Shown here: positions 388-62,954 of the stretch, in pieces
Layout of the letters: each line of letters opens with the position of its first letter
How positions within the stretch are numbered: the stretch's first letter is position 1
NCBI GenBank assembly: GCA_016125095.1
Contig: WGMK01000022.1
Location: 37,897 to 101,896 of the forward strand
DNA from: Candidatus Hydrogenedens sp.
GTDB lineage: Bacteria > Hydrogenedentota > Hydrogenedentia > Hydrogenedentales > JAEUWI01
Direction: 5' to 3'
DNA: 64,000 nt
Position numbers and translations under genes: made by a program
The notes under the pieces: model-generated
Databases searched by the model: none
What the model saw: the letters and a program-made list of their open reading frames with translations, nothing else
What the model was told of the DNA's origin: nothing

Positions 388-1326
388 CTATCTAGGAGAT
401 TCCGGTCTGTACCGTAGCGCCGCCACGACCGCCTGCTGCACGGGCACGGAGGCGGAGAGTTCAAGGTGGCCGATGCCCTTGAGGCGGAGGTTGTCGGCGT
501 GGGGCAGCACGGAGCTGTCTTGCGGGGCGATGATGTTGTCGTGGGTGCTCCAGATGGAGGTGATGGGCACGGGCTTGGGCTCTTCGGCATTGAGCGCCGT
601 GAGCCAGGCATTGCCGGGTATCATCTGCCGGGCGTCTTCCCCAGGTCCGGACTTCGCGGTCACAGTGCCGTGGTGCGGGGTGCCGAGCGTGATGATGCGG
701 CTGACATGCGCGTCGCCGCCGTGGTGCTGCACATAGCACCGCGAAACGAGCCCGCCCATGCTGTGCCCGATGAGCGCGACCTTCTCCGCCCCGGTTTCCT
801 GCCGGATGGCATCGACGCGCGCGGCGACCTGCCGGGCGAAGTCTTCAATGCTGCCGAAGGTGGGGTCCATGTTGATGGTGTAGAGGTTGTGAAAGCCCGC
901 GGCGCGCAGGGCGGGCTTGAGTGGAATCCAATAGGCGCCGTTGCACACGTAGCCGTGGACGCAGAGGATAGGCATGGAGCTATCGGGCTTCGCCGGGCCG
1001 CGCTGATTTATCAGGAATTCGAAGGGGTGGTAGCAGCAGAACATGCGCAGCACGGCGCCATATTCGGCCAGCGCCAGCCGCCGCCATCCCGCCGCGTCGA
1101 GTTCATCCTTCGGCGCGCGGTCGTAACGGAAATGCTCCGATACGCCGAACATCTTGCGCGTCACGTTCGCCCGGATGCCCAGCGCCACCACCGCGCAGAC
1201 CGCCAGCGTGATCGGCGGACTGATAAGCCCGAGGAACGACAACAGCCAAGCGGCCGCCGCGTAGATCAGCGCCTCGGCCGCCATCGCGGCGACCAGTATC
1301 TTTGAAAGCATCCCGATGAACGGCAT
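388..1326 (-). CDS. membrane-anchored alpha/beta hydrolase (lipase/PGAP1-like)
   Basis: 312-aa ORF with hydrophobic N-terminal segments, then a hydrolase core with nucleophile elbow LIGHSMGGLV and the LCVHGYVCNG motif. Confidence 0.8.
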   Translation of the reverse strand: MPFIGMLSKILVAAMAAEALIYAAAAWLLSFLGLISPPITLAVCAVVALGIRANVTRKMFGVSEHFRYDRAPKDELDAAGWRRLALAEYGAVLRMFCCYHPFEFLINQRGPAKPDSSMPILCVHGYVCNGAYWIPLKPALRAAGFHNLYTINMDPTFGSIEDFARQVAARVDAIRQETGAEKVALIGHSMGGLVSRCYVQHHGGDAHVSRIITLGTPHHGTVTAKSGPGEDARQMIPGNAWLTALNAEEPKPVPITSIWSTHDNIIAPQDSSVLPHADNLRLKGIGHLELSASVPVQQAVVAALRYRPESPR

Positions 1327-1344
1327 GGCGGATTCCTGCGGGGG

Positions 1345-2304
1345 TTAGTTACGGACCCAATCGGAGAAGGACACGACGGCTTCGCGCGCTGCGTCTTCGC
1401 CCTTCACCGCGGTCACCCCGCCGACGTAGCGCGGCGTGGCGAAGACGGCATCGTAGTAGCCGCCGCCGAGGTGGCAGAGCAGAAAGCTATGGCCGTCGTC
1501 CTCGAACTCGCTTGTGCTCTCGCCATATTGCCCGAAGTAGGCGCGGTAGCGATCGAGCGTTTCCCGGATGGCCGCCTCGTCCGCAGGCATGCGGACGAAA
1601 TAGGTAATGGTCGCGCCGTTGAACTCGCCCGTCGATTCGGCGGTGTAGGTCTGCGGCATGAACTCCAGGCTCATGGCGTCGGCGTTGAAGTACTTGATGG
1701 ACCCGGCGTCAAACTGCGGGGCGGTGAACACCTTCACGCCCCAGAGCTCGCCGGTCTCGCTGTCGAGCCGCGCGGCCAGCGCCTTGCCGATGCTCTCCTC
1801 GGCGGCGTGGAGTTCGGGCGTGTCGTCCGAGGCGACGAAGGTGGCGTAGAAGCGGCCCTTGCGGAAAAACACGTCGCCGCGGCTGCGGTAGGCCGCCTCG
1901 CCGATCTCCAGCGGCTCGCCTTCCTCGAAGCGCTCGACGCCGAACACGCCGTAGGCCTGCACCGGCTCGGTCATGTCGTAGAGGAAAATCTCGATCTCGC
2001 CCGCCCCGCCCACCATGCGGCAGAAGGCCAGGCCCGAGGTGCCGTAAGACAGGTACAGCTCGCTGCGGCCGTTGATCTTGTCGTACATGCCCTCGGGCGT
2101 GTAGCGCTCGACGCCGGTGTGCTTCCAGCCCTCCACCTCGAGCCCCTCGAGCGCGGTGGCGATGGCCTCCGTCATCTTCAGGTCGGCCTCGCTCAGCTTC
2201 GACGGGTCGTAGGCCGAGGTCACAAAGCCGCCGTCATCGGCGCGACCCGGTCCACACGCCAAAACCAGCGCTGCCAGCAGAAAGCCCAGCAATCGTTTCA
2301 TCAT
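1345..2304 (-). CDS. hypothetical lipoprotein
   Basis: Internal start MMKRLLGFLLAALVLAC (lipobox LAC) at 2304. The upstream part of the 405-aa ORF is Arg/Pro/Ala-rich with no signal peptide. No recognisable family. Confidence 0.65.
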   Translation of the reverse strand: MMKRLLGFLLAALVLACGPGRADDGGFVTSAYDPSKLSEADLKMTEAIATALEGLEVEGWKHTGVERYTPEGMYDKINGRSELYLSYGTSGLAFCRMVGGAGEIEIFLYDMTEPVQAYGVFGVERFEEGEPLEIGEAAYRSRGDVFFRKGRFYATFVASDDTPELHAAEESIGKALAARLDSETGELWGVKVFTAPQFDAGSIKYFNADAMSLEFMPQTYTAESTGEFNGATITYFVRMPADEAAIRETLDRYRAYFGQYGESTSEFEDDGHSFLLCHLGGGYYDAVFATPRYVGGVTAVKGEDAAREAVVSFSDWVRN

Positions 2305-2401
2305 GGTACTTCGTTCCTTGCCGCCCGGCGTTGACTGATTCGCCCTCGTGGGGTACTCTGGCATGGCTGTATGCCGAAAGCCAACCAGGGAGGCGAACGC
2401 C

Positions 2402-3448
2402 ATGCCTAAAGACCACGCGCTGGACCGCCGGGGATTCATGAAAACCGCCGCGCTGGCCGGAGCCGCCGCGGGATTCGCGGGCCGCGCCGGGGCCGAGCTG
2501 CCTCCGCTGATGAAGCGCCCGGGCGACGACGGCCTCATCCACGGCCACGAGGCGCCCGGCATGACCTATCGCAAGCTGGGGCGCACCAACTACATGGCGA
2601 GCCGGCTGGTGTTCGGCTGCGGTGCGGCGCTGAGCGGCGGCAAGGCCGTGCGCCTGCTCGACCGTGCCCTCGAGGCGGGCGTCAATTTCTACGATGTCGG
2701 CTCGAACACCTATTACCGCGGCGCGGAGAACCACCTCGGGCCGTTCATGAAGGCCAACCGCGACGCCATCTGGGTGAGCTCGAAGGCCCCGCAGAAGCTG
2801 GTGGCGGACCACAAGGACGGCGACCCGCTGACGGTGGAGCAGGCGCAGTCGATCGCCGCGATGTGGACCAAGCTACTCGAGGCGAGCCTGAAGGACCTGG
2901 ACACGGAATACGTGGACGCTTACTACATCATGGCGTGCAGCGATCCCTCGGTGGTGAAGGCCGAAGAGATGTACCAGGCCTTTCTCGACGCCAAGGCGGC
3001 GGGTAAGGTGGGGCACTTCGGCGTGAGCACGCACCACAACACCACGGCCGTGCTCGAGGCGATGGCGGAGACCGGCTGGTACGACCTCGCGATGATGGGC
3101 ATCACGCCGGCGGGCTGGTACGACTGGAACATCCACGACCTGGCCGAGGGCACGCCGCCGATGGCGAAGCTCAAGCCGGTATTCGAAAAGGCGCGCGCGG
3201 CAGGCATCGGGCTCATCGGCATGAAGAGCGCGCGCTACCTGTCGCCCGCGGGCGGCAAGGATGATCCCACGCTCTTCGACGCGCACTATACCGAGGCGCA
3301 GATGAACAGCGGGCTCGACGGCTTCCAGCGGTCGTATGCCTATGTGCTGGCCAACGGCGTGGACGTGGTGAATTCCGACATGCAGAACTTCGAAACGCTC
3401 GAGGCCAACCTCAAGGCCGTCGCCGCTTCCGACACCCTCTTCGCCTAG
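2402..3448 (+). CDS. aldo/keto reductase with twin-arginine (Tat) signal
   Basis: Start MPKDHALDRRGFMKTAALAGAAAGFAG (RRxFMK Tat motif). AKR-like core (GVNFYDVGSNTYYRGAENHLG, GHFGVSTH). Confidence 0.8.
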   Translation: MPKDHALDRRGFMKTAALAGAAAGFAGRAGAELPPLMKRPGDDGLIHGHEAPGMTYRKLGRTNYMASRLVFGCGAALSGGKAVRLLDRALEAGVNFYDVGSNTYYRGAENHLGPFMKANRDAIWVSSKAPQKLVADHKDGDPLTVEQAQSIAAMWTKLLEASLKDLDTEYVDAYYIMACSDPSVVKAEEMYQAFLDAKAAGKVGHFGVSTHHNTTAVLEAMAETGWYDLAMMGITPAGWYDWNIHDLAEGTPPMAKLKPVFEKARAAGIGLIGMKSARYLSPAGGKDDPTLFDAHYTEAQMNSGLDGFQRSYAYVLANGVDVVNSDMQNFETLEANLKAVAASDTLFA

Positions 3449-3453
3449 ACGCG

Positions 3454-4305
3454 ATGGGCATGAAGGAATCAGTCGCGGCCGCGATGGGCGCCAGCGTGGT
3501 CTCGACGCGTCCGCTCGAGGGAGGCTGCATCGGCGAGGTCTACCATGCCACGCTCGACGACGGCCAGGAAGTGGTCGTGAAATGGCACGCGGGCCCGGGC
3601 GGCACGCTCGATACCGAGGGGCAGATGCTGCGCTATCTCGACGAGCACGCGGGCCTGCCCGTGCCGGTCGTCTTCCATACCGAGCCCGGGCTGCTGATCA
3701 TGAGCTTCGAGCCGGGCAGCAGCACCTTCAGCACCGCCGCGCAGCAACACGCCGCCGTGGCGCTTGCCGCACTTCACGCGGTCGCTGCGCCCAAATATGG
3801 TTTTAAGCGCGCCACGCTGATCGGGGGACTGCACCAGCCGAACGACTGGAGCAAGAAGTGGGTGCCCTTCTTCCGCGAGCAGCGGCTGTTGTACATGGCG
3901 GAAGAAGCCGCGCAGGCGGGGCGGCTGCCGGCATCCACGCGCGCCCGCATCGATCAATTGGCGGAGAAACTGCCAGACCTCATCGGCGAACCCGACAAGC
4001 CCGCGCTGCTGCACGGCGATGTGTGGACCACCAACGTGCTGGCGCAGGGCGGCAAGGTGACCGCCTTTCTCGACCCCGCCATCTATTACGGCCACCCCGA
4101 AATCGAGCTGGCCTTCATCACGCTGTTCAACACCTTCGGTGACGCGTTCTTCACGCGGTACCAGGAAATACGCGCCATCGCGCCGGGGTTTTTCGAGGAA
4201 CGCCGAGACTTGTACAACCTGTATCCGCTGCTCGTGCATGTGCGCCTCTTCGGGGGCGGCTATGTGCACAGCGTGGAACAAACGCTAAGCCGCTTCGGCT
4301 GCTGA
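3454..4305 (+). CDS. fructosamine kinase family protein
   Basis: LLHGDVWTTNVL and FLDPAIYYGHPEIELAF motifs typical of the fructosamine-3-kinase/aminoglycoside-kinase fold. 283 aa. Confidence 0.85.
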   Translation: MGMKESVAAAMGASVVSTRPLEGGCIGEVYHATLDDGQEVVVKWHAGPGGTLDTEGQMLRYLDEHAGLPVPVVFHTEPGLLIMSFEPGSSTFSTAAQQHAAVALAALHAVAAPKYGFKRATLIGGLHQPNDWSKKWVPFFREQRLLYMAEEAAQAGRLPASTRARIDQLAEKLPDLIGEPDKPALLHGDVWTTNVLAQGGKVTAFLDPAIYYGHPEIELAFITLFNTFGDAFFTRYQEIRAIAPGFFEERRDLYNLYPLLVHVRLFGGGYVHSVEQTLSRFGC

Positions 4306-5030: not shown

Positions 5031-6903
5031 GCTGTGCGCGGCCGCGCTGACGGCCACCCTGTTGATGCCTGTTCTCGCTTTCGCCCAGTCCGCCCAGGTC
5101 GGTGCGGACAAGCGGCTGCGCCCCAACGAAAAGGTCGTCGTGCGCCATCTGCACTATCGTCCCGCCCGGTGGGAAGAAGAGCACGTCAAAGAATACGAGA
5201 ATCTGCCGCGTAATGAGGGCGGGCTGCTCTATCTCTACCTTCAAAACGTGTCGGACGAAGCGGTCGATTTGAAGTTCTGGCGGGCGAACGGCGAGGACGA
5301 ATCGTATTGGCGGCTGAACCACCTCACCGCGTGGGACCGCCTGTATGACCGCCACCTGCAGCCGGGACAATCGACCGTCCTTGAGATCAATGCGCTCACG
5401 AAAGACTTCGCACCCGGCGGCGACTTCAAGTTCGCGTATGTCGGCGATGGCTGGTCGCCGGTGTGCGTGTACAAGGGCACGCTCGAGGCGGCGCCCGCGC
5501 GCATTTCCTACGTGCGCGTGCATGACGACATGAAAACCCTGACCGTGCACCTGCGCGACACGAGCGGCGTCCCGGCCGATGCGGTCGCGCTCGCGGTGGC
5601 GGGCAAGACGATCGCAGAGACCACCTGGCAAGGCGCGGATTTGGCGACGGGCGCGGCCATCGCCACCGTGGTGCTGGAACAGCCGTTGCAGGCCTCGGAG
5701 CTGCTGATGCTGCAAGCGACGATCACGCGCGGCAGCGAGACCACCGAGGCCTGGGCGCACCGCCGCGCCTATCCGGATTACTTCCCCATCGGCGTCTGGA
5801 GCAACGGCCCGGACACGTGGGACACACTGTACCGGATGCACATCGACACGATGGTGGCGGGCGGCAGCCCCGACGACCGGTTCTACACCGAGGCTGTGCC
5901 GAAGTACGGCTTTCGCAACATGGTGCATACCGGCGTGCCCACCGAAGTGGACCGCGTGCGCGCCGTGGCCGACCGGCCGGAAATCGCCTGCTGGATGATT
6001 CAGGACGAGCCGGACTGGTCGATCGCGTCGAACATCATGCTGCATACCGACAACGAACTGCGTAAGTACGATCGGTCGAAGCCGAGCTTCATCACGCTGT
6101 GCCGCAACGTGAAGTTCATGGAGTATGCGCCCATTGCCGACATCCCCTGCCAGGACCACTATTCGGTAACCGCGCCGAGCAGCAGCCAGTGGCCAAAGCC
6201 CTACGGCACGCGGCTGGAGGAAACGGCCTACTACACGCGCGACCTGAAGTACGCGAGCGAGCCCAAGCCGATCTGGATCTGGACCCAGGGCATCGCGAAC
6301 TGGGGCGAGCGCCCGAAGCGCCCGGTGCCCACGCCCAACGAACTCGCGGCGCAGCTGCTGCTCAATATCGGGCGCGGCGCGAAGGGCATCATCTGGTTTA
6401 ACTATGCCGAGGACGTGGCGAAGGAATGGCCCGATGCGGTCGAGGCCATGCGCGACTGGGGCCGCGTGATGCGCATGCTCCGGGACGATCTGCTCGATGG
6501 CGACATCGCCGACGTCCCCGTGGAGATGGCGGCAGACCTCAAGCTGGATGTCGCGACCGTTCTCTCGGGAGACGCGCTCTCCCTGCTGATCACCAATACC
6601 GACTACGAAATCGACCCCGAGGCCTATCCGTTCAAGACGAAGGAGAACGCCTCGCTGACCGTGCACCGCGTCCCTGCCTGGCTCAAAGGGCAGCCCGTGT
6701 GGCGTGTATCGCCCGAGGGCGTGGCACCCCTGGAGCGCACTTGGAGCACCGACTCCGGCGATGACGCCGTGGCGATTCAGGCCGGCACTATCGAAGCGTC
6801 TGCCGTCGTTGTCATCGCCTCCGAGGCCCGCGCGGAGCAATACCGCAGCGAATACGCCGCGGCCCTCGCGCAGGAAACGGCGGCGGCTGAGGAGGTAAAG
6901 TAG
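5014..6903 (+). CDS. secreted hypothetical protein (possible TIM-barrel glycoside-hydrolase-like)
   Basis: Start MRLRSKLCAAALTATLLMPVLAFAQSAQ (signal peptide) at 5014, overlapping the previous gene by 17 nt. The N-terminal 90 aa of the 719-aa ORF are out-of-frame overlap of the methyltransferase gene. The functional guess is weak. Confidence 0.65.
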   Translation: MRLRSKLCAAALTATLLMPVLAFAQSAQVGADKRLRPNEKVVVRHLHYRPARWEEEHVKEYENLPRNEGGLLYLYLQNVSDEAVDLKFWRANGEDESYWRLNHLTAWDRLYDRHLQPGQSTVLEINALTKDFAPGGDFKFAYVGDGWSPVCVYKGTLEAAPARISYVRVHDDMKTLTVHLRDTSGVPADAVALAVAGKTIAETTWQGADLATGAAIATVVLEQPLQASELLMLQATITRGSETTEAWAHRRAYPDYFPIGVWSNGPDTWDTLYRMHIDTMVAGGSPDDRFYTEAVPKYGFRNMVHTGVPTEVDRVRAVADRPEIACWMIQDEPDWSIASNIMLHTDNELRKYDRSKPSFITLCRNVKFMEYAPIADIPCQDHYSVTAPSSSQWPKPYGTRLEETAYYTRDLKYASEPKPIWIWTQGIANWGERPKRPVPTPNELAAQLLLNIGRGAKGIIWFNYAEDVAKEWPDAVEAMRDWGRVMRMLRDDLLDGDIADVPVEMAADLKLDVATVLSGDALSLLITNTDYEIDPEAYPFKTKENASLTVHRVPAWLKGQPVWRVSPEGVAPLERTWSTDSGDDAVAIQAGTIEASAVVVIASEARAEQYRSEYAAALAQETAAAEEVK

Positions 6904-7292
6904 TGGCAGGCGGGGCCAAGGCGGTCGCATCAGGGCAGACGCTCGAGGACCGCGTCGTGGTGATTGCCACGGAGCTCGGTCTCAAGGTGGAGACGCAGGT
7001 GAAGGTGGGCCGCCGGATCTGGGGTGCTGTCCGCAAAATCGATGTCGTGCTCAAAGACCCGACGACGCGCGTGAGTTTGGGTATCGAGTGCAAATTCCAG
7101 AAGAGTTCCGGTACCGCAGAGGAAAAGATTCACGCCACCATCCGCGACATGGAGGCTTGGCCCATCCGTGGTATCGTCGTCTATTCCGGTCCGGGGTTTT
7201 CGGAAAACATGAAGGCGTTTCTCTTGTCGACAGGAAAAGCCGTTGACTTGGATGATCTCAACACCTGGCTTCGGCTTTATTTCGGACTATGA
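6903..7292 (+). CDS. small PD-(D/E)XK nuclease, candidate restriction endonuclease
   Basis: 129 aa. GTG start overlaps the upstream stop. D..ExK arrangement KIDVVLKD...LGIECKFQKSSG. Stop overlaps the Dam start (ATGA). Confidence 0.6.
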   Translation: MAGGAKAVASGQTLEDRVVVIATELGLKVETQVKVGRRIWGAVRKIDVVLKDPTTRVSLGIECKFQKSSGTAEEKIHATIRDMEAWPIRGIVVYSGPGFSENMKAFLLSTGKAVDLDDLNTWLRLYFGL

Positions 7293-8134
7293 TGGCCACC
7301 GACGAAGCGTATAAACCCCGCCCCTTCCTGAAATGGGCGGGCGGCAAGGGGCAGCTGCTGCCGGAACTGACCGCGGCCGTGGCGGAGGCCAGGAAGTTCA
7401 AGGCCTACCACGAGCCCTTTGTGGGTGGCGGCGCGCTGTTCTTCGCGCTGCAGGGCGGCGGCGCACTGGCGGAAAAATCAGTACGTCTGTCGGACACGAA
7501 CCCGCGGCTGATCGACCTCTACCTTGCCATCCGCGACGATGTGTCCGGCGTGATTCGGCACCTGAAGAAGCACGCTGCGGCGCACGACGAAACATACTAC
7601 TACGCGACGCGCGCCGAGATACCGAAGACTTCTTCGGCACGGGCGGCGCGGCTGCTCTACTTGAACCGCACCTGCTTCAACGGGCTCTTCCGCGAGAACA
7701 GCAAAGGCGAGTTCAACGTGCCGATGGGCCGCTACAAGAATCCCGCCATCTGCGACGAGCCGAAGCTGCGCGCCGCATCGGCCGCGCTGGCCCAGGCCGA
7801 CATCGCCTGCCGCCCCTTTGAAAGCGTGCTGGATCATGCCGCGAAGGGGGACTTCGTCTACTTCGATCCGCCCTACGCGCCGGTGTCGGCCACGGCGCAA
7901 TTCACCAGCTACCACCAGGACGGCTTTGGCACGGCGGATCAGGAACGGCTCGCAGACGTGTGTGCGCAGCTTCACCGGCGCAAGGTGAAGTTCCTGCTCT
8001 CGAATTCCGACGTGCCGCTCATCCGCGATCTCTACAAAGACTTCCAGGTCTCGCAAGTCTTCGCGACCCGCATGGTCAACAGCCGCGCCGACAGGCGCGG
8101 CAAGGTGGCCGAGGTGCTCGTGCGGAATTTCTGA
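7289..8134 (+). CDS. dam: DNA adenine methyltransferase (Dam/D12 class, N6-adenine)
   Basis: FLKWAGGKGQLLPEL, EPFVGGGALFF and FDPPY motifs. 281 aa. Confidence 0.9.
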   Translation: MMATDEAYKPRPFLKWAGGKGQLLPELTAAVAEARKFKAYHEPFVGGGALFFALQGGGALAEKSVRLSDTNPRLIDLYLAIRDDVSGVIRHLKKHAAAHDETYYYATRAEIPKTSSARAARLLYLNRTCFNGLFRENSKGEFNVPMGRYKNPAICDEPKLRAASAALAQADIACRPFESVLDHAAKGDFVYFDPPYAPVSATAQFTSYHQDGFGTADQERLADVCAQLHRRKVKFLLSNSDVPLIRDLYKDFQVSQVFATRMVNSRADRRGKVAEVLVRNF

Positions 8135-43127: not shown

Positions 43128-44054
43128 ATGTCCATCCGTTTCATCGTTGTGCTGCTGCTGGCGGCGTGTTGCGCCGCGCAGGCCCAGAAGCCCACGTTCA
43201 CCGACCTGCAATACGGCCCGCACGAGCGTCAGAAGCTCGACTTTTGGAGCGCCGACACCAAGGAGCCCGCGCCGCTCGTCATCTATGTGCATGGCGGCGG
43301 GTTCGAGCACGGCGACAAGTCTCGCGCGACCGAAGGGCGCAATGGCAGCGATGTCAAAGACTGTCTGCGGAACGACGTTTCCTTCGCGTCCATCAACTAC
43401 CGCTTTCTGGACGACGCGCCGCTGCAAGACATTGTGACCGACACCGCGCGCGCCATTCAGTATCTCCGCAGCCGCGCGGCCGACCTGAATATCGACAAGA
43501 ACCGCATCGGGCTCTACGGCGAATCGGCGGGTGCGGGATCCTCACTCTGGGTGGGACTGCACGACGACCTGGCCGACCCGGCCAGTAGCGATCCCGTCGC
43601 ACGGGAGTCCACGCGGGTCGCGGCCATCGGCGCGCTCGCGCCGCAGTCCACCTACGACTTCGCGCAATGGCCGAGCCTGTTCGGACTGAACGACAACATC
43701 TGGTACCTCAGCGCTGTGTATGTCGGACCCCGGTATTACCGGCTCGACACCAGCAAACTGAAGAAGCCAGAGGGCGAAGAGACGCGGAAGCGCCTTGATA
43801 TGCTCGCGCTTATCACGCCCGACGACCCGCCCGTGTTCGTGCGTTGCTATCAGGACGATACCGAGGTGAGCACGTGGGACGACATGCTCCACCATCCGCG
43901 CCACGCCGAGGTGCTGCAAGAACGGCTGGAGGCCGCAGGAATCGAAAACGTGGTGGTACTCAAGGACATGCCCAAGAGCCAGAAGTCCGAAGCCGTCGAC
44001 TTCCTCATGCAGCACCTCAAGGCTCCGCGCGAAACTACCGCAGCCGTTCGCTGA
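43128..44054 (+). CDS. secreted alpha/beta hydrolase (esterase)
   Basis: Signal MSIRFIVVLLLAACCAAQA. VIYVHGGGFEHGD and GESAGAGSSLW (GxSxG). Confidence 0.85.
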   Translation: MSIRFIVVLLLAACCAAQAQKPTFTDLQYGPHERQKLDFWSADTKEPAPLVIYVHGGGFEHGDKSRATEGRNGSDVKDCLRNDVSFASINYRFLDDAPLQDIVTDTARAIQYLRSRAADLNIDKNRIGLYGESAGAGSSLWVGLHDDLADPASSDPVARESTRVAAIGALAPQSTYDFAQWPSLFGLNDNIWYLSAVYVGPRYYRLDTSKLKKPEGEETRKRLDMLALITPDDPPVFVRCYQDDTEVSTWDDMLHHPRHAEVLQERLEAAGIENVVVLKDMPKSQKSEAVDFLMQHLKAPRETTAAVR

Positions 44055-44062
44055 GCGCGGCG
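44035..44062 (+). repeat. direct repeat copy 1 (left boundary of inserted cassette)
   Basis: CTACCGCAGCCGTTCGCTGAG is identical at 44035-44055 and 44970-44990. It extends to 28 bp with one mismatch. Confidence 0.9.
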
Positions 44063-44479
44063 CTATACCCGCTGCGTGGCAGGAAGCTGGCAGGCCGCCT
44101 CCGCGTAGCCCAGCTTCCGCTTCTGTGTCTCTGGACGCTTCGTGTACGAACTGAAGAGCATCATGCTCAACTCGACTGCGGCGACCTCGTCCTGGTCCAA
44201 GGCTGTACGAATACGGGCAACGTCGTAACCGAATTCGTTCAAGAGTGCATGAATCCCTTTCAACTGGAATCCAATCGCGCGGTTGTCCAAGGCGGAGCGG
44301 TACAGTGTGAGGTATTCATCAATACGATCCGCCACGACACCCTCGTTGACCGTGATAAACATCACACAATCGCCGTGGGCGTTATACCAGGGCGCCCCAA
44401 TCCGATCGGTCGATTCCCAATCAGGTTCCTGCTTCAACTCTTCCACGTAAGCATCTAGGAAATGGGGTTCGCGGTCCAT
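44063..44479 (-). CDS. hypothetical protein, candidate antitoxin/immunity partner
   Basis: Start MDREPHFL with GGAGG 6 nt upstream. It overlaps the 3' end of the upstream gene by 25 nt. 138 aa. Confidence 0.6.
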   Translation of the reverse strand: MDREPHFLDAYVEELKQEPDWESTDRIGAPWYNAHGDCVMFITVNEGVVADRIDEYLTLYRSALDNRAIGFQLKGIHALLNEFGYDVARIRTALDQDEVAAVELSMMLFSSYTKRPETQKRKLGYAEAACQLPATQRV

Positions 44480-44892
44480 TTCAAGCCTCCAAACCGTTCT
44501 TCCCATCGGTCGATATGGTTCCGGTCGTCCGCGCTGGCGCGCTCTGGCCGGAAGCTGTACAGGATGAAACGGTCATTTAGATACACGGCGTAAATCAAGT
44601 GCTCCGGAAAGGGCTCGGCGATCACGCCCTCGCGCACATAGTATCGCTTCGGTCTGCCTACGAAACACCAGAAACCATAGTTCATATGCCGCACACCGCA
44701 ATAAATGTTCAGCGGATTGTCGAGCACCTCTTTTACACACCGGAGATTCTCGTACTCGACGGAATTATGCTGATACACACGCCGCACCAGATCCGCCGGG
44801 ATGGTGACTTCCACCACGGATTCCGGATTCAGCGGGTCTATCGTTTCACATGCGAAGTTCCGAGTCACGAATCTCTCTGTCCTTCCTGCCAT
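44455..44892 (-). CDS. hypothetical protein, candidate toxin (RelE/BECR-like layout is speculative)
   Basis: 145-aa ORF in the A/T-richer cassette. No strong SD. Pattern VYQHNSVEYENLRCVKEVLDNPLNIY ... LIYAVYLNDRFILYSFRPE. Confidence 0.55.
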   Translation of the reverse strand: MAGRTERFVTRNFACETIDPLNPESVVEVTIPADLVRRVYQHNSVEYENLRCVKEVLDNPLNIYCGVRHMNYGFWCFVGRPKRYYVREGVIAEPFPEHLIYAVYLNDRFILYSFRPERASADDRNHIDRWEERFGGLKWTANPIS

Positions 44893-44969
44893 TGTAGCAT
44901 TCTGCGCTGATTTGGCAAGAATTCATTTCTGAATGACCCGGAGAGATTAATTGCGCGGAGATATCGTGG

Positions 44970-44997
44970 CTACCGCAGCCGTTCGCTGAGGGCGGCG
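44970..44997 (+). repeat. direct repeat copy 2 (right boundary of inserted cassette)
   Basis: See copy 1. On the minus strand it encodes the udk C-terminus AALSERLR plus the stop codon. Confidence 0.9.
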
Positions 44998-45566
44998 GCT
45001 TCGGCCGCGAAATCGGCGTCGCCGGAGATGACATGCTCGGCTTCGGCCTTTGAAGGCACGACAAATTCCATGGCGAGCGGCGCGGTCTGGGTTTTGAACT
45101 GGCGCACCACTTCAGCGGCCGCGCGGCCGCGTTCGGTGGTATCCCGCTCCAGGCGGCGCTTGAGGCACAGGGTCTGCGGCGCCTCGATGTAGACCTTGAA
45201 GTCGAGCAGCGAGCGCAACGCCGGCTGCCAGAGCACGTGCAATCCTTCCACGATGACCACCGGCACCGGCGCGATTGGGATGGTCTCCGGGGTGCGGCTG
45301 TGCGTGGCGAAATCGTAGACGGGAATCTCGACCGTGGCGCCCGATTGCAGCGACATGAAGTTCTCGAAGAAGCGCGACCAGTCGATGGCATCGGGATGGT
45401 CGAAGTTCAGGGCGGCGCGGCGCTCGGCATCCATGTCGGCGCGGTCGCGGTAGAACGCGTCCAGCGGAATGACCGCGGCGTCGGCGCCCAGCGCCTCTGC
45501 CAGCAATCGCGCGAAGGTGCTTTTGCCTGCGCCCGAGGGTCCTGCGATTCCGACCATCAGGGGCAT
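44970..45566 (-). CDS. udk: uridine kinase
   Basis: VGIAGPSGAGKSTFARLL P-loop. 198 aa. Confidence 0.85.
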   Translation of the reverse strand: MPLMVGIAGPSGAGKSTFARLLAEALGADAAVIPLDAFYRDRADMDAERRAALNFDHPDAIDWSRFFENFMSLQSGATVEIPVYDFATHSRTPETIPIAPVPVVIVEGLHVLWQPALRSLLDFKVYIEAPQTLCLKRRLERDTTERGRAAAEVVRQFKTQTAPLAMEFVVPSKAEAEHVISGDADFAAEAAALSERLR

Positions 45567-52321: not shown

Positions 52322-52536
52322 ATGCGGTTTGCCGCCTTGGAGTGCGAAAGGCTTGCTTGCGCTTTAACCGAGGGAGCTTGCTCCCGGCGCCGGCCGCAAC
52401 GTCTCGCACCGGCACAGGCGCTCTCACGACGCGATGGTCTTACGATGGCGTAAAGCGCGACGGCGCGTGCCGGGAGCAAGCTCCCTTAACGAAAGCGGCG
52501 GCAAGTCCGCCGCACTCCAAAGCGGCTGCGCCGCAT
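52322..52536. repeat. palindromic repeat element, copy A (~70-bp inverted arms)
   Basis: Left arm ATGCGGTTTGCCGCCTTGGAGTGCG...GGGAGCTTGCTCCCGG. The right arm is its imperfect reverse complement, ...CCGGGAGCAAGCTCCC...CGCACTCCAAAGCGGCTGCGCCGCAT. Confidence 0.8.
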
Positions 52537-62788: not shown

Positions 62789-62954
62789 CCGCGGCGCAGC
62801 CGCCTTGGAGTGCGGCAGACTTGCTGCCGCTTTTCGGAGGGAGCTTGCTCCCGTCGCCGGTGGTACAGCCTTGGTCTGACGTGCAAGCGACGGAAGCGAG
62901 CTTCCTCGTCAAAGCGGGAGCTAGCTCCCGCACTCCAAAGCGGCTGCGCCGCAT
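62789..62954. repeat. palindromic repeat element, copy B (right arm shortened)
   Basis: GCGGCGCAGCCGCCTTGGAGTGCGGCAGACTTGCTGCCGCTTTTCGGAGGGAGCTTGCTCCCG is ~90% identical by eye to the reverse complement of the copy A right arm. It ends in ...GGGAGCTAGCTCCCGCACTCCAAAGCGGCTGCGCCGCAT. Confidence 0.8.

Follow-up and report, generated by a model that had tools for sequence, protein, structure and literature searches.

A cassette of two small overlapping genes, here called A and B, was found in a 64,000-nucleotide stretch of the genome of Candidatus Hydrogenedens sp. (assembly GCA_016125095.1, contig WGMK01000022.1, positions 37,897 to 101,896; below, the window). It lies between the convergent genes of an esterase and of uridine kinase, udk, and is bounded by a direct repeat of 28 nt (Table 1). 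With high confidence the cassette can be regarded as inserted foreign DNA, and the repeat, judging from its sequence, is very probably a duplicated host target. In the best overall explanation, to which we give about an even chance, a foreign operon with an addiction- or defence-type gene pair would have been inserted here with a 28-bp target duplication.

Direct repeats at the cassette boundaries

The 21-mer CTACCGCAGCCGTTCGCTGAG is present at exactly two sites in the window, 44035-44055 and 44970-44990, both on the plus strand, and no third site was found with three mismatches tolerated. None of 100 dinucleotide-preserving shuffles contained matches, even with up to 3 mismatches, and the number expected by chance is 0. 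With a single mismatch tolerated, the match continues ungapped to 28 nt, and the two copies are spaced 935 nt apart; on direct reading of the letters, positions 29-30 are mismatched between the copies. The exact 21-mer and its 28-bp extension had been described in an earlier note on this DNA, and both were recovered at the same positions.

Copy 1 encodes the final seven codons of the esterase (..ETTAAVR) and its stop codon TGA (44052-44054), followed by 8 nt to the stop codon of gene B, and copy 2 encodes, on the minus strand, the final six codons of udk (..LSERLR) and its stop codon TAG (CTA at 44970-44972). Both stop codons (CTA...TGA) are contained in any one copy, and the reading frames bear out this assignment of the copies, which the earlier note had made. 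The lone mismatch falls at a synonymous third-codon position of udk in copy 2 (44991) and, on the side of copy 1, inside the 8-nt non-coding gap, so duplication of 28 bp with one neutral change would be likelier than duplication of 21 bp with a chance extension of 6 nt.

Eighteen of the 21 nucleotides of the repeat belong to the conserved coding 3' end of udk and align with the udk genes of the relatives L122 (CTCAGCGGGCGGCTGCGG, protein 76% identical) and L123 (CTATGCGAACGGCTGCGT, 77%); this alignment indicates that copy 2 is native and copy 1 its duplicate. A search of the window, of IMG/VR viral contigs and of 132 fetched loci for further copies of the 21-mer or of its 18-nt core gave none, and the 21-mer does not behave as a common motif in this material. 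Folding of the reconstructed target and of the 28-mer revealed no notable hairpin. A second assembly (Logan SRR10063241, locus L085) is 100% identical to the window across 9,028 bp, both repeats included, and an assembly artefact is unlikely because the exact 21-nt repeat is shorter than the usual assembly k-mers.

When the locus is collapsed in silico to one repeat copy, the 308-aa esterase and the 198-aa uridine kinase remain intact, the 3' ends of their convergent genes overlapping by 20 nt; the reconstructed single-copy (empty) site reads CACCTCAAGGCTCCGCGCGAAACTACCGCAGCCGTTCGCTGAG[G/C]GCGGCGGCTTCGGCCGCG. Without copy 1 the esterase frame runs to 332 aa, and without copy 2 the udk frame runs to 230 aa. 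The collapse and the deletion of either copy agree with the proposal of the earlier note that the insertion duplicated this segment and thereby kept both genes intact. The junction of an excised circle, as deduced from the repeat and the cassette ends, would be GGAGATATCGTGG-CTACCGCAGCCGTTCGCTGAG[C/G]GCGGCG-CTATACCCGCTGCG.

Table 1. Coordinates of the cassette, its repeats and the flanking host genes in the window
Feature	Position	Strand	Description
Host esterase	43128..44054	+	308 aa; Pfam BD-FAE / Abhydrolase_3; last 7 codons inside copy 1
Direct repeat, copy 1	44035..44062		28 nt, first 21 exact; probable duplicate of udk 3' end
Inserted cassette (probable)	44063..44969	-	907 bp, G+C 0.542; promoter region, gene A, gene B
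Gene B	44063..44479	-	138 aa; stop 44063-44065 abuts repeat copy 1
Gene A	44455..44868	-	137 aa, GTG start; uncharacterised family
Sigma-70-like promoter match	44891..44918	-	TTGCCA, 16-nt spacer, TG-preceded TACAAT; 10/12 positions; upstream of gene A
Direct repeat, copy 2	44970..44997		28 nt; probable native udk 3' end (minus strand ..AAALSERLR + TAG)
Host uridine kinase udk	44970..45566	-	198 aa; Pfam PRK family PF00485

Composition and gene content of the cassette

No other 907-bp window in the 64 kb has a G+C content as low as that of the cassette; windows of this size outside the cassette have a mean of 0.654, a standard deviation of 0.022 and a minimum of 0.588. G+C at third codon positions is 0.67-0.68 in the cassette genes versus 0.81-0.90 in the neighbouring genes. 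The second-lowest G+C (0.578) was observed at the window edge, at positions 1-800, beside a tRNA-Gln gene (162-233).

Genes A and B are co-oriented and overlap by 25 nt (44455-44479). The GTG start of gene A is also the one chosen in the public gene call P0001, and other family members have N-termini consistent with it; an alternative in-frame ATG at 44892 would give a protein of 145 aa. The ribosome-binding motif GGAGG and the ATG of gene B are situated within the codons for RFGGLKW, the conserved C-terminal motif of gene A. This dual-coding overlap (alignment columns about 545-575) is the best-conserved DNA of the module when the three closest cassettes are compared.

No recombinase-like open reading frame (ORF) and no terminal inverted repeats were found in the cassette, which matches the description in the earlier note of an A/T-richer interior with two co-oriented overlapping genes and no recombinase. 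Non-coding DNA is absent from the B end and comprises about 100 nt, bearing the promoter-like site, at the A end; the non-coding ends had no match among the sequences compared, and a scan of positions 43800-45200 against Rfam gave no match. The cassette has the orientation of udk, which lies directly upstream of it. Since no terminator-like site was found after gene B, transcripts of the cassette would read antisense into the 3' end of the esterase gene, and transcripts of udk would read into the cassette.

Comparison with a syntenic relative

In the relative L120/L121, the gene order SDR-DUF4202-udk-esterase-DUF1501-PSCyt/PSD1 is represented without the cassette, the proteins being 73% (udk) and 69% (esterase) identical to those of the window; therefore, the state of the window is an insertion. 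Remnants of A or B were not found in the spacers of relatives. The earlier note had named a two-repeat arrangement in relatives without compositional contrast as a sign of ancient vertical inheritance; L120/L121 is cassette-free, and in the window the cassette is the G+C minimum.

The A-B gene family

Close homologues among 5.8 billion protein clusters are few, namely, two for gene A and eight for gene B. A HMMER scan with the A profile against 1.84 billion representatives recovered 161 proteins with E<=1e-3, including 73 with E<=1e-10. Full-length members of family A are mostly about 130-150 aa long and share the motif DP..P.G...NL..A..VL..P.RIF.G.R....GGWCYVG.P..W....PFP...VY.VY.N.R...Y.WR.E.AD..D...P..W..RF. 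Homologues of B at other loci are 32-58% identical to B of the window, and about 15 positions of the N-terminal 75 aa are invariant, including W31, Y32, G36, D37, C38, R52, D54, T58, Y60, S62, R67, G70, F71, Q72 and K74. The two proteins are not related to each other.

The A and B proteins of the window have no match in Pfam, NCBIfam, PADLOC or PHROGs, and profile searches with both against all PDB sequences gave nothing significant. The 70 members of the family A alignment have no convincing match in Pfam, NCBIfam or PADLOC, and seven members of the B family have none in Pfam. AlphaFold2 models were unusable, with a mean predicted local distance difference test score (pLDDT) of 39 for A (3-sequence alignment) and 48 for B (9-sequence alignment). 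A protein-pattern search of IMG/VR viral contigs detected no relatives, the plasmid collection gave no protein match for A or B, and the phage collection gave no DNA match for the cassette.

Wherever the flanks were usable, in eight loci out of eight (the window, L001, L003/L002, L124, L127, L130, L131 and L132), gene A was found with an overlapping B after it. The G+C content of the module is below that of the flanks in seven of the seven other loci, and the gene neighbourhood is different at every locus. In L001, the pair lies beside genes hsdS/hsdR of a type I restriction-modification system, directly downstream of a Phage_integrase fragment (ORF of 179 aa); in L003, beside genes for P63C and an IS1595 transposase, next to dprA; in L130, beside an IS1595 transposase gene; in L131, beside a PIN-domain gene and a DUF433 gene; and in L132, beside genes for an HNH nuclease and an N6/N4 methyltransferase.

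The other copies of the pair have coding sequence in common and no common non-coding ends. Inverted ends are absent from the window, L001, L124, L127, L131 and L132, and consistent flanking direct repeats were not found at the seven other loci, which contain just weak pairs of 14-17 nt in L131 and L132. The pair in L132, a 17-nt direct repeat with 15/17 positions identical (5161-5177 and 6418-6434), brackets A-B and may be due to chance; a tRNA-Pro gene (6987-7072) is located about 850 bp downstream in this locus.

Strict pairing, translational coupling, patchy distribution, foreign G+C content and neighbourhoods with defence and mobile genes suggest that A-B may be a toxin-antitoxin-like or defence module, a call that we consider evenly balanced and that is based on gene organisation, distribution and neighbourhoods rather than on homology. 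Similar to type II toxin-antitoxin systems, the two genes are small and coupled, have their own promoter-like site, always occur as a pair, are patchily distributed and G+C-poorer than their hosts, and are found beside restriction-modification, toxin-antitoxin and transposase genes. Unlike in those systems, A and B match no known toxin or antitoxin family, DNA-binding antitoxin domain or solved structure, and at about 138 aa they are larger than typical.

The pair as a passenger of IS1595-family transposons

Elsewhere the pair is carried by transposons. In L130 (ENA ERZ25067264, positions 5867-8018), A-B and a convergent gene of an IS1595-family transposase form an element of 2,152 bp with 26-nt terminal inverted repeats (23/26 match), and the 8 bp duplicated at its target, CAATCAAG, are identical on both sides; the element is a genuine transposon of the IS1595 type that carries A-B as passengers. 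In L003 (Logan SRR11714420, positions 1028-3953; the same element is present in L002, JGI 3300036760), inverted repeats enclose A-B, P63C and a transposase gene. These repeats are represented by 21 nt at 95% complementarity and an outer pair of 20-23 nt, the transposase is 33% identical to that of L130, and no clean target duplication was found in L003/L002. Toxin-antitoxin genes are known as transposon passengers in the Tn3 family (PMC7157771).

The window cassette carries the same pair as these transposons, but it has neither a transposase gene nor inverted ends, and the duplication at its borders measures 28 bp instead of 8 bp. Because of these differences, the window copy came by a route other than IS1595, or its junctions were remodelled later.

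Likeness to known kinds of insertion

Insertion with long target duplication has been described for restriction-modification gene complexes, which are flanked by long direct repeats of unique host sequence and have no mobility genes (Nobusato et al. 2000, Gene 259:99; Furuta et al. 2010, PMC2853133). Such inserts are often atypical in G+C content, the repeats sometimes include the 3' end of a gene, and the authors attributed the insertions to double-strand breakage; a cut-off of >30 bp separates the class from site-specific recombination, and the reported cases range from 46 to >400 bp (PMC2853133). By analogy, this kind of event would be the best match to the window and would fit at least as well as an attachment (att) core. 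The window insert likewise has no transposase or integrase, its repeats are of host-unique sequence and longer than transposon duplications, and its G+C content is deviant. A relative free of the insert, with the flanking genes conserved on both sides, is also available, although a distant one (udk 73%, esterase 69%), and the repeat is a copy of a host sequence that is single at the target, with one udk end in L122 and L123. In contrast to the described cases, the window cargo is no recognisable restriction-modification system (no Pfam or PADLOC match) and consists of an uncharacterised pair, and the target is the junction, possibly the overlap, of convergent genes, with no same-species empty site.

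The cassette also resembles the modules of Acinetobacter that are bounded by 28-bp dif sites recognised by the host XerC/XerD, are small and recombinase-free, and in some cases carry toxin-antitoxin genes (bioRxiv 10.1101/2022.01.12.475240): it is small, has no recombinase and has 28-bp bounds. A dif-like site was rejected, as the repeat has no 11-6-11 dyad symmetry, its arms are complementary at 4/11 positions by inspection, its fold is unremarkable and it is udk coding sequence. Integron attC was likewise rejected, the cassette having its own promoter-like site, no palindrome at either end and boundaries that are not GTTRRRY. Duplication of the type made by clustered regularly interspaced short palindromic repeat (CRISPR) systems or casposons was rejected by inspection, and insertion sequence ends were rejected, no inverted ends being present at the cassette termini.

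IS1630 of Mycoplasma fermentans (IS30 family), as cited in PMC2853133, makes target duplications of 19-26 bp (Calcutt et al. 1999), which are near the 21-28 bp of the window; as characterised in that citation, it has a transposase, inverted ends and inverted-repeat targets, none of which was found in the window. The 28 bp of the window fall between the 19-26 bp of IS1630 and the >30-bp cut-off, and on length an att-type origin is possible.

Proposed course of the insertion

In the preferred explanation, a horizontally acquired, self-contained two-gene operon would have been inserted once at the tail-to-tail junction of udk and the esterase gene, with duplication of 28 bp of host DNA corresponding to the udk 3' end. 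The stop codons of both genes lie in this duplicated stretch, and each gene would thus have kept its full reading frame. In the immediate target, the esterase frame would have extended into the udk end by about 20 nt, provided that the event was a simple insertion. The cassette encodes nothing for its own mobility, and a one-off staggered break, capture of the fragment and fill-in may be envisaged; for this break-and-fill route, as opposed to a site-specific one, we see slightly less than an even chance. The neat outcome is probably explained by selection, because only duplication of the whole segment with both stops leaves both genes unchanged. Once established, the A-B pair may persist as an addiction or defence module because its loss is costly, and the 21-28-bp repeats would allow rare precise loss of the cassette via recombination or slippage.

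Several observations weigh against this explanation. In L120, udk and the esterase gene do not overlap and are separated by 302 bp, which does not favour a simple insertion into an overlap. A true empty site in a close strain was not found, the nearest complete relative being L120/L121; the exact udk protein of the window is present only on the contig identical to the window, and the contig of the closest esterase relative, L086, whose DUF1501 gene is 87% identical at the nucleotide level, ends at esterase residue 252. The duplication of 28 bp is below the >30-bp criterion of the long-target-duplication class. The event is single, no other copy of the module having such repeats. Finally, neither protein matches any toxin or antitoxin family, and a toxin-antitoxin function is proposed from context alone.

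Alternative explanations

Integrative elements have direct repeats of about 20-30 bp that copy the conserved 3' end of a gene, and the target gene is intact after insertion. The repeats of the window could accordingly be attL and attR of a site-specific element that targets the udk 3' end and supplies a replacement gene end, in which case the cassette would be cis-mobilisable, with the recombinase elsewhere, or would be the last part of a decayed island kept as an addiction module. We consider this unlikely, though it has several features on its side: 21-28 bp is typical of att cores, the repeat is the conserved 3' end of a housekeeping gene left intact, the pair in L001 is directly downstream of the Phage_integrase-family ORF, and repeats of <30 bp are compatible with site-specific recombination (PMC2853133). 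On the other hand, no integrase or transposase gene was found in the cassette, among the genes called over the 9 kb around it (L085) or in 10 further window ORFs that were scanned, and a second element or a second copy of the core is absent, neither the 21-mer nor its 18-nt core being reused. The cassette of 907 bp is almost all coding and leaves no room for arm-type sites, as the stop codon of gene B abuts the repeat and about 100 nt are available at the A end. Other copies of the module have coding sequence alone in common and no flanking repeats, and a decayed island would require a deletion ending precisely at the att site. The suggestion of the earlier note that the repeat is an att core, with the cassette mobilised in trans or remaining from an island, thus found no positive evidence in recombinases, core reuse or arm-site room.

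A second possibility, which we regard as quite unlikely, is that the genes never overlapped: the ancestor would have had a spacer of 150-300 bp, and a complex event would have shaped the junctions, either an insertion that duplicated the udk end, after which the spacer was deleted together with the stop codon of the esterase, or an illegitimate recombination that replaced the spacer in one step. The tail of the window esterase, about 8 aa longer than those of its homologues, would then be a by-product. The state of the relatives points in this direction. The esterase of L120, beyond the 302-bp spacer (positions 6604-6905, A+T-rich, G+C 0.52), ends in ..HLGVE*, 3 aa after the conserved HL, versus 11 aa after HL in the window, and more distant homologues stop 2-4 aa past the HL-equivalent position. 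The udk genes of L122 and L123, the nearest ones, extend six codons past ..LR. In L122, the DNA after udk is apparently non-coding for 150 nt or more; the final 27 nt of this locus are a possible esterase end (..SLK*), too short to call.

The 3' neighbour of udk varies among relatives and is represented by the esterase, an FGGY-kinase-like gene or a symporter. A convergent FGGY-kinase-like gene was observed 34 bp from udk in L123 (812-1012), and a solute symporter gene downstream of udk in L005 (5789-6136). As the downstream DNA differs in every relative, the udk 3' flank seems to be a rearrangement-prone spot in the lineage.

An origin without overlap needs an extra step with an endpoint exactly at the udk stop codon in copy 1, whereas simple insertion already accounts for every base, and the relatives, with 57-77% udk identity, are too distant to reveal the state of the immediate ancestor. 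The ancestral overlap of udk and the esterase gene proposed in the earlier note, read from the collapsed sequence, would thus hold if the event was a simple insertion. Because relatives show a spacer, a shorter esterase and a longer udk, the overlap, if ever present, would be a recent derived state due to loss of the spacer; otherwise the cassette would have replaced the spacer in a complex event. The logic of the proposal is sound and the collapse yields the overlap of 20 nt, but the spacer of L120 leaves it unconfirmed; likewise, the search for an empty site yielded a syntenic locus free of the cassette, but with the genes spaced rather than overlapping at a single repeat copy.

An improbable reading, more far-reaching than insertion by a one-off break, is that the A-B pair is its own minimal mobile unit, one of its proteins making or provoking a staggered break of about 28 nt and capturing its own genes, or that the udk 3' end is the att site of a recombinase that moves 0.9-kb cassettes in trans; in both cases, A-B would represent a novel family of toxin-antitoxin or defence genes that rides on IS1595 transposons. 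If the pair is a mobile unit, gene B would be the better candidate for the break-maker, judging from the roughly 15 invariant polar residues within its first 75 aa.

An old, vertically inherited arrangement, a chance repeat or an assembly artefact is effectively refuted: the one mismatch in the 28-mer does mean that the event is not brand new, but zero matches are expected by chance, the cassette is the composition minimum of the window and is absent from the syntenic L120/L121, the second assembly is identical, and the gene pair is found in unrelated contexts elsewhere.

Other features of the window

An intergenic repeat of about 160-205 bp is present in two copies, at 52331-52536 and 62799-62954. 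It has internal inverted symmetry (GCCGCCTTGGAGTGCG ... CCGCACTCCAAAGCGGC; GAGGGAGCTTGCTCCC palindrome) and looks like a repetitive extragenic palindromic (REP) sequence or a miniature inverted-repeat transposable element (MITE). A gene on the plus strand at 7289-8131 encodes a D12-class N6-adenine DNA methyltransferase, Dam-like (PF02086, E=4e-63); the few neighbouring ORFs that were scanned included no restriction partner for it.

Significance

This kind of event has already been described for restriction-modification systems, and what is new in the window is the cargo and the target. The locus offers a base-by-base view of how a small selfish gene pair could settle in a gene-dense genome where intergenic space is lacking, with both neighbours remaining intact. 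The A-B family is an unannotated conserved pair and, as such, a tangible candidate for a novel system of toxin-antitoxin or defence type. If the pair were self-mobile, its behaviour would parallel, on a protein-only basis, the virus-like life cycle that has been proposed for restriction-modification systems.

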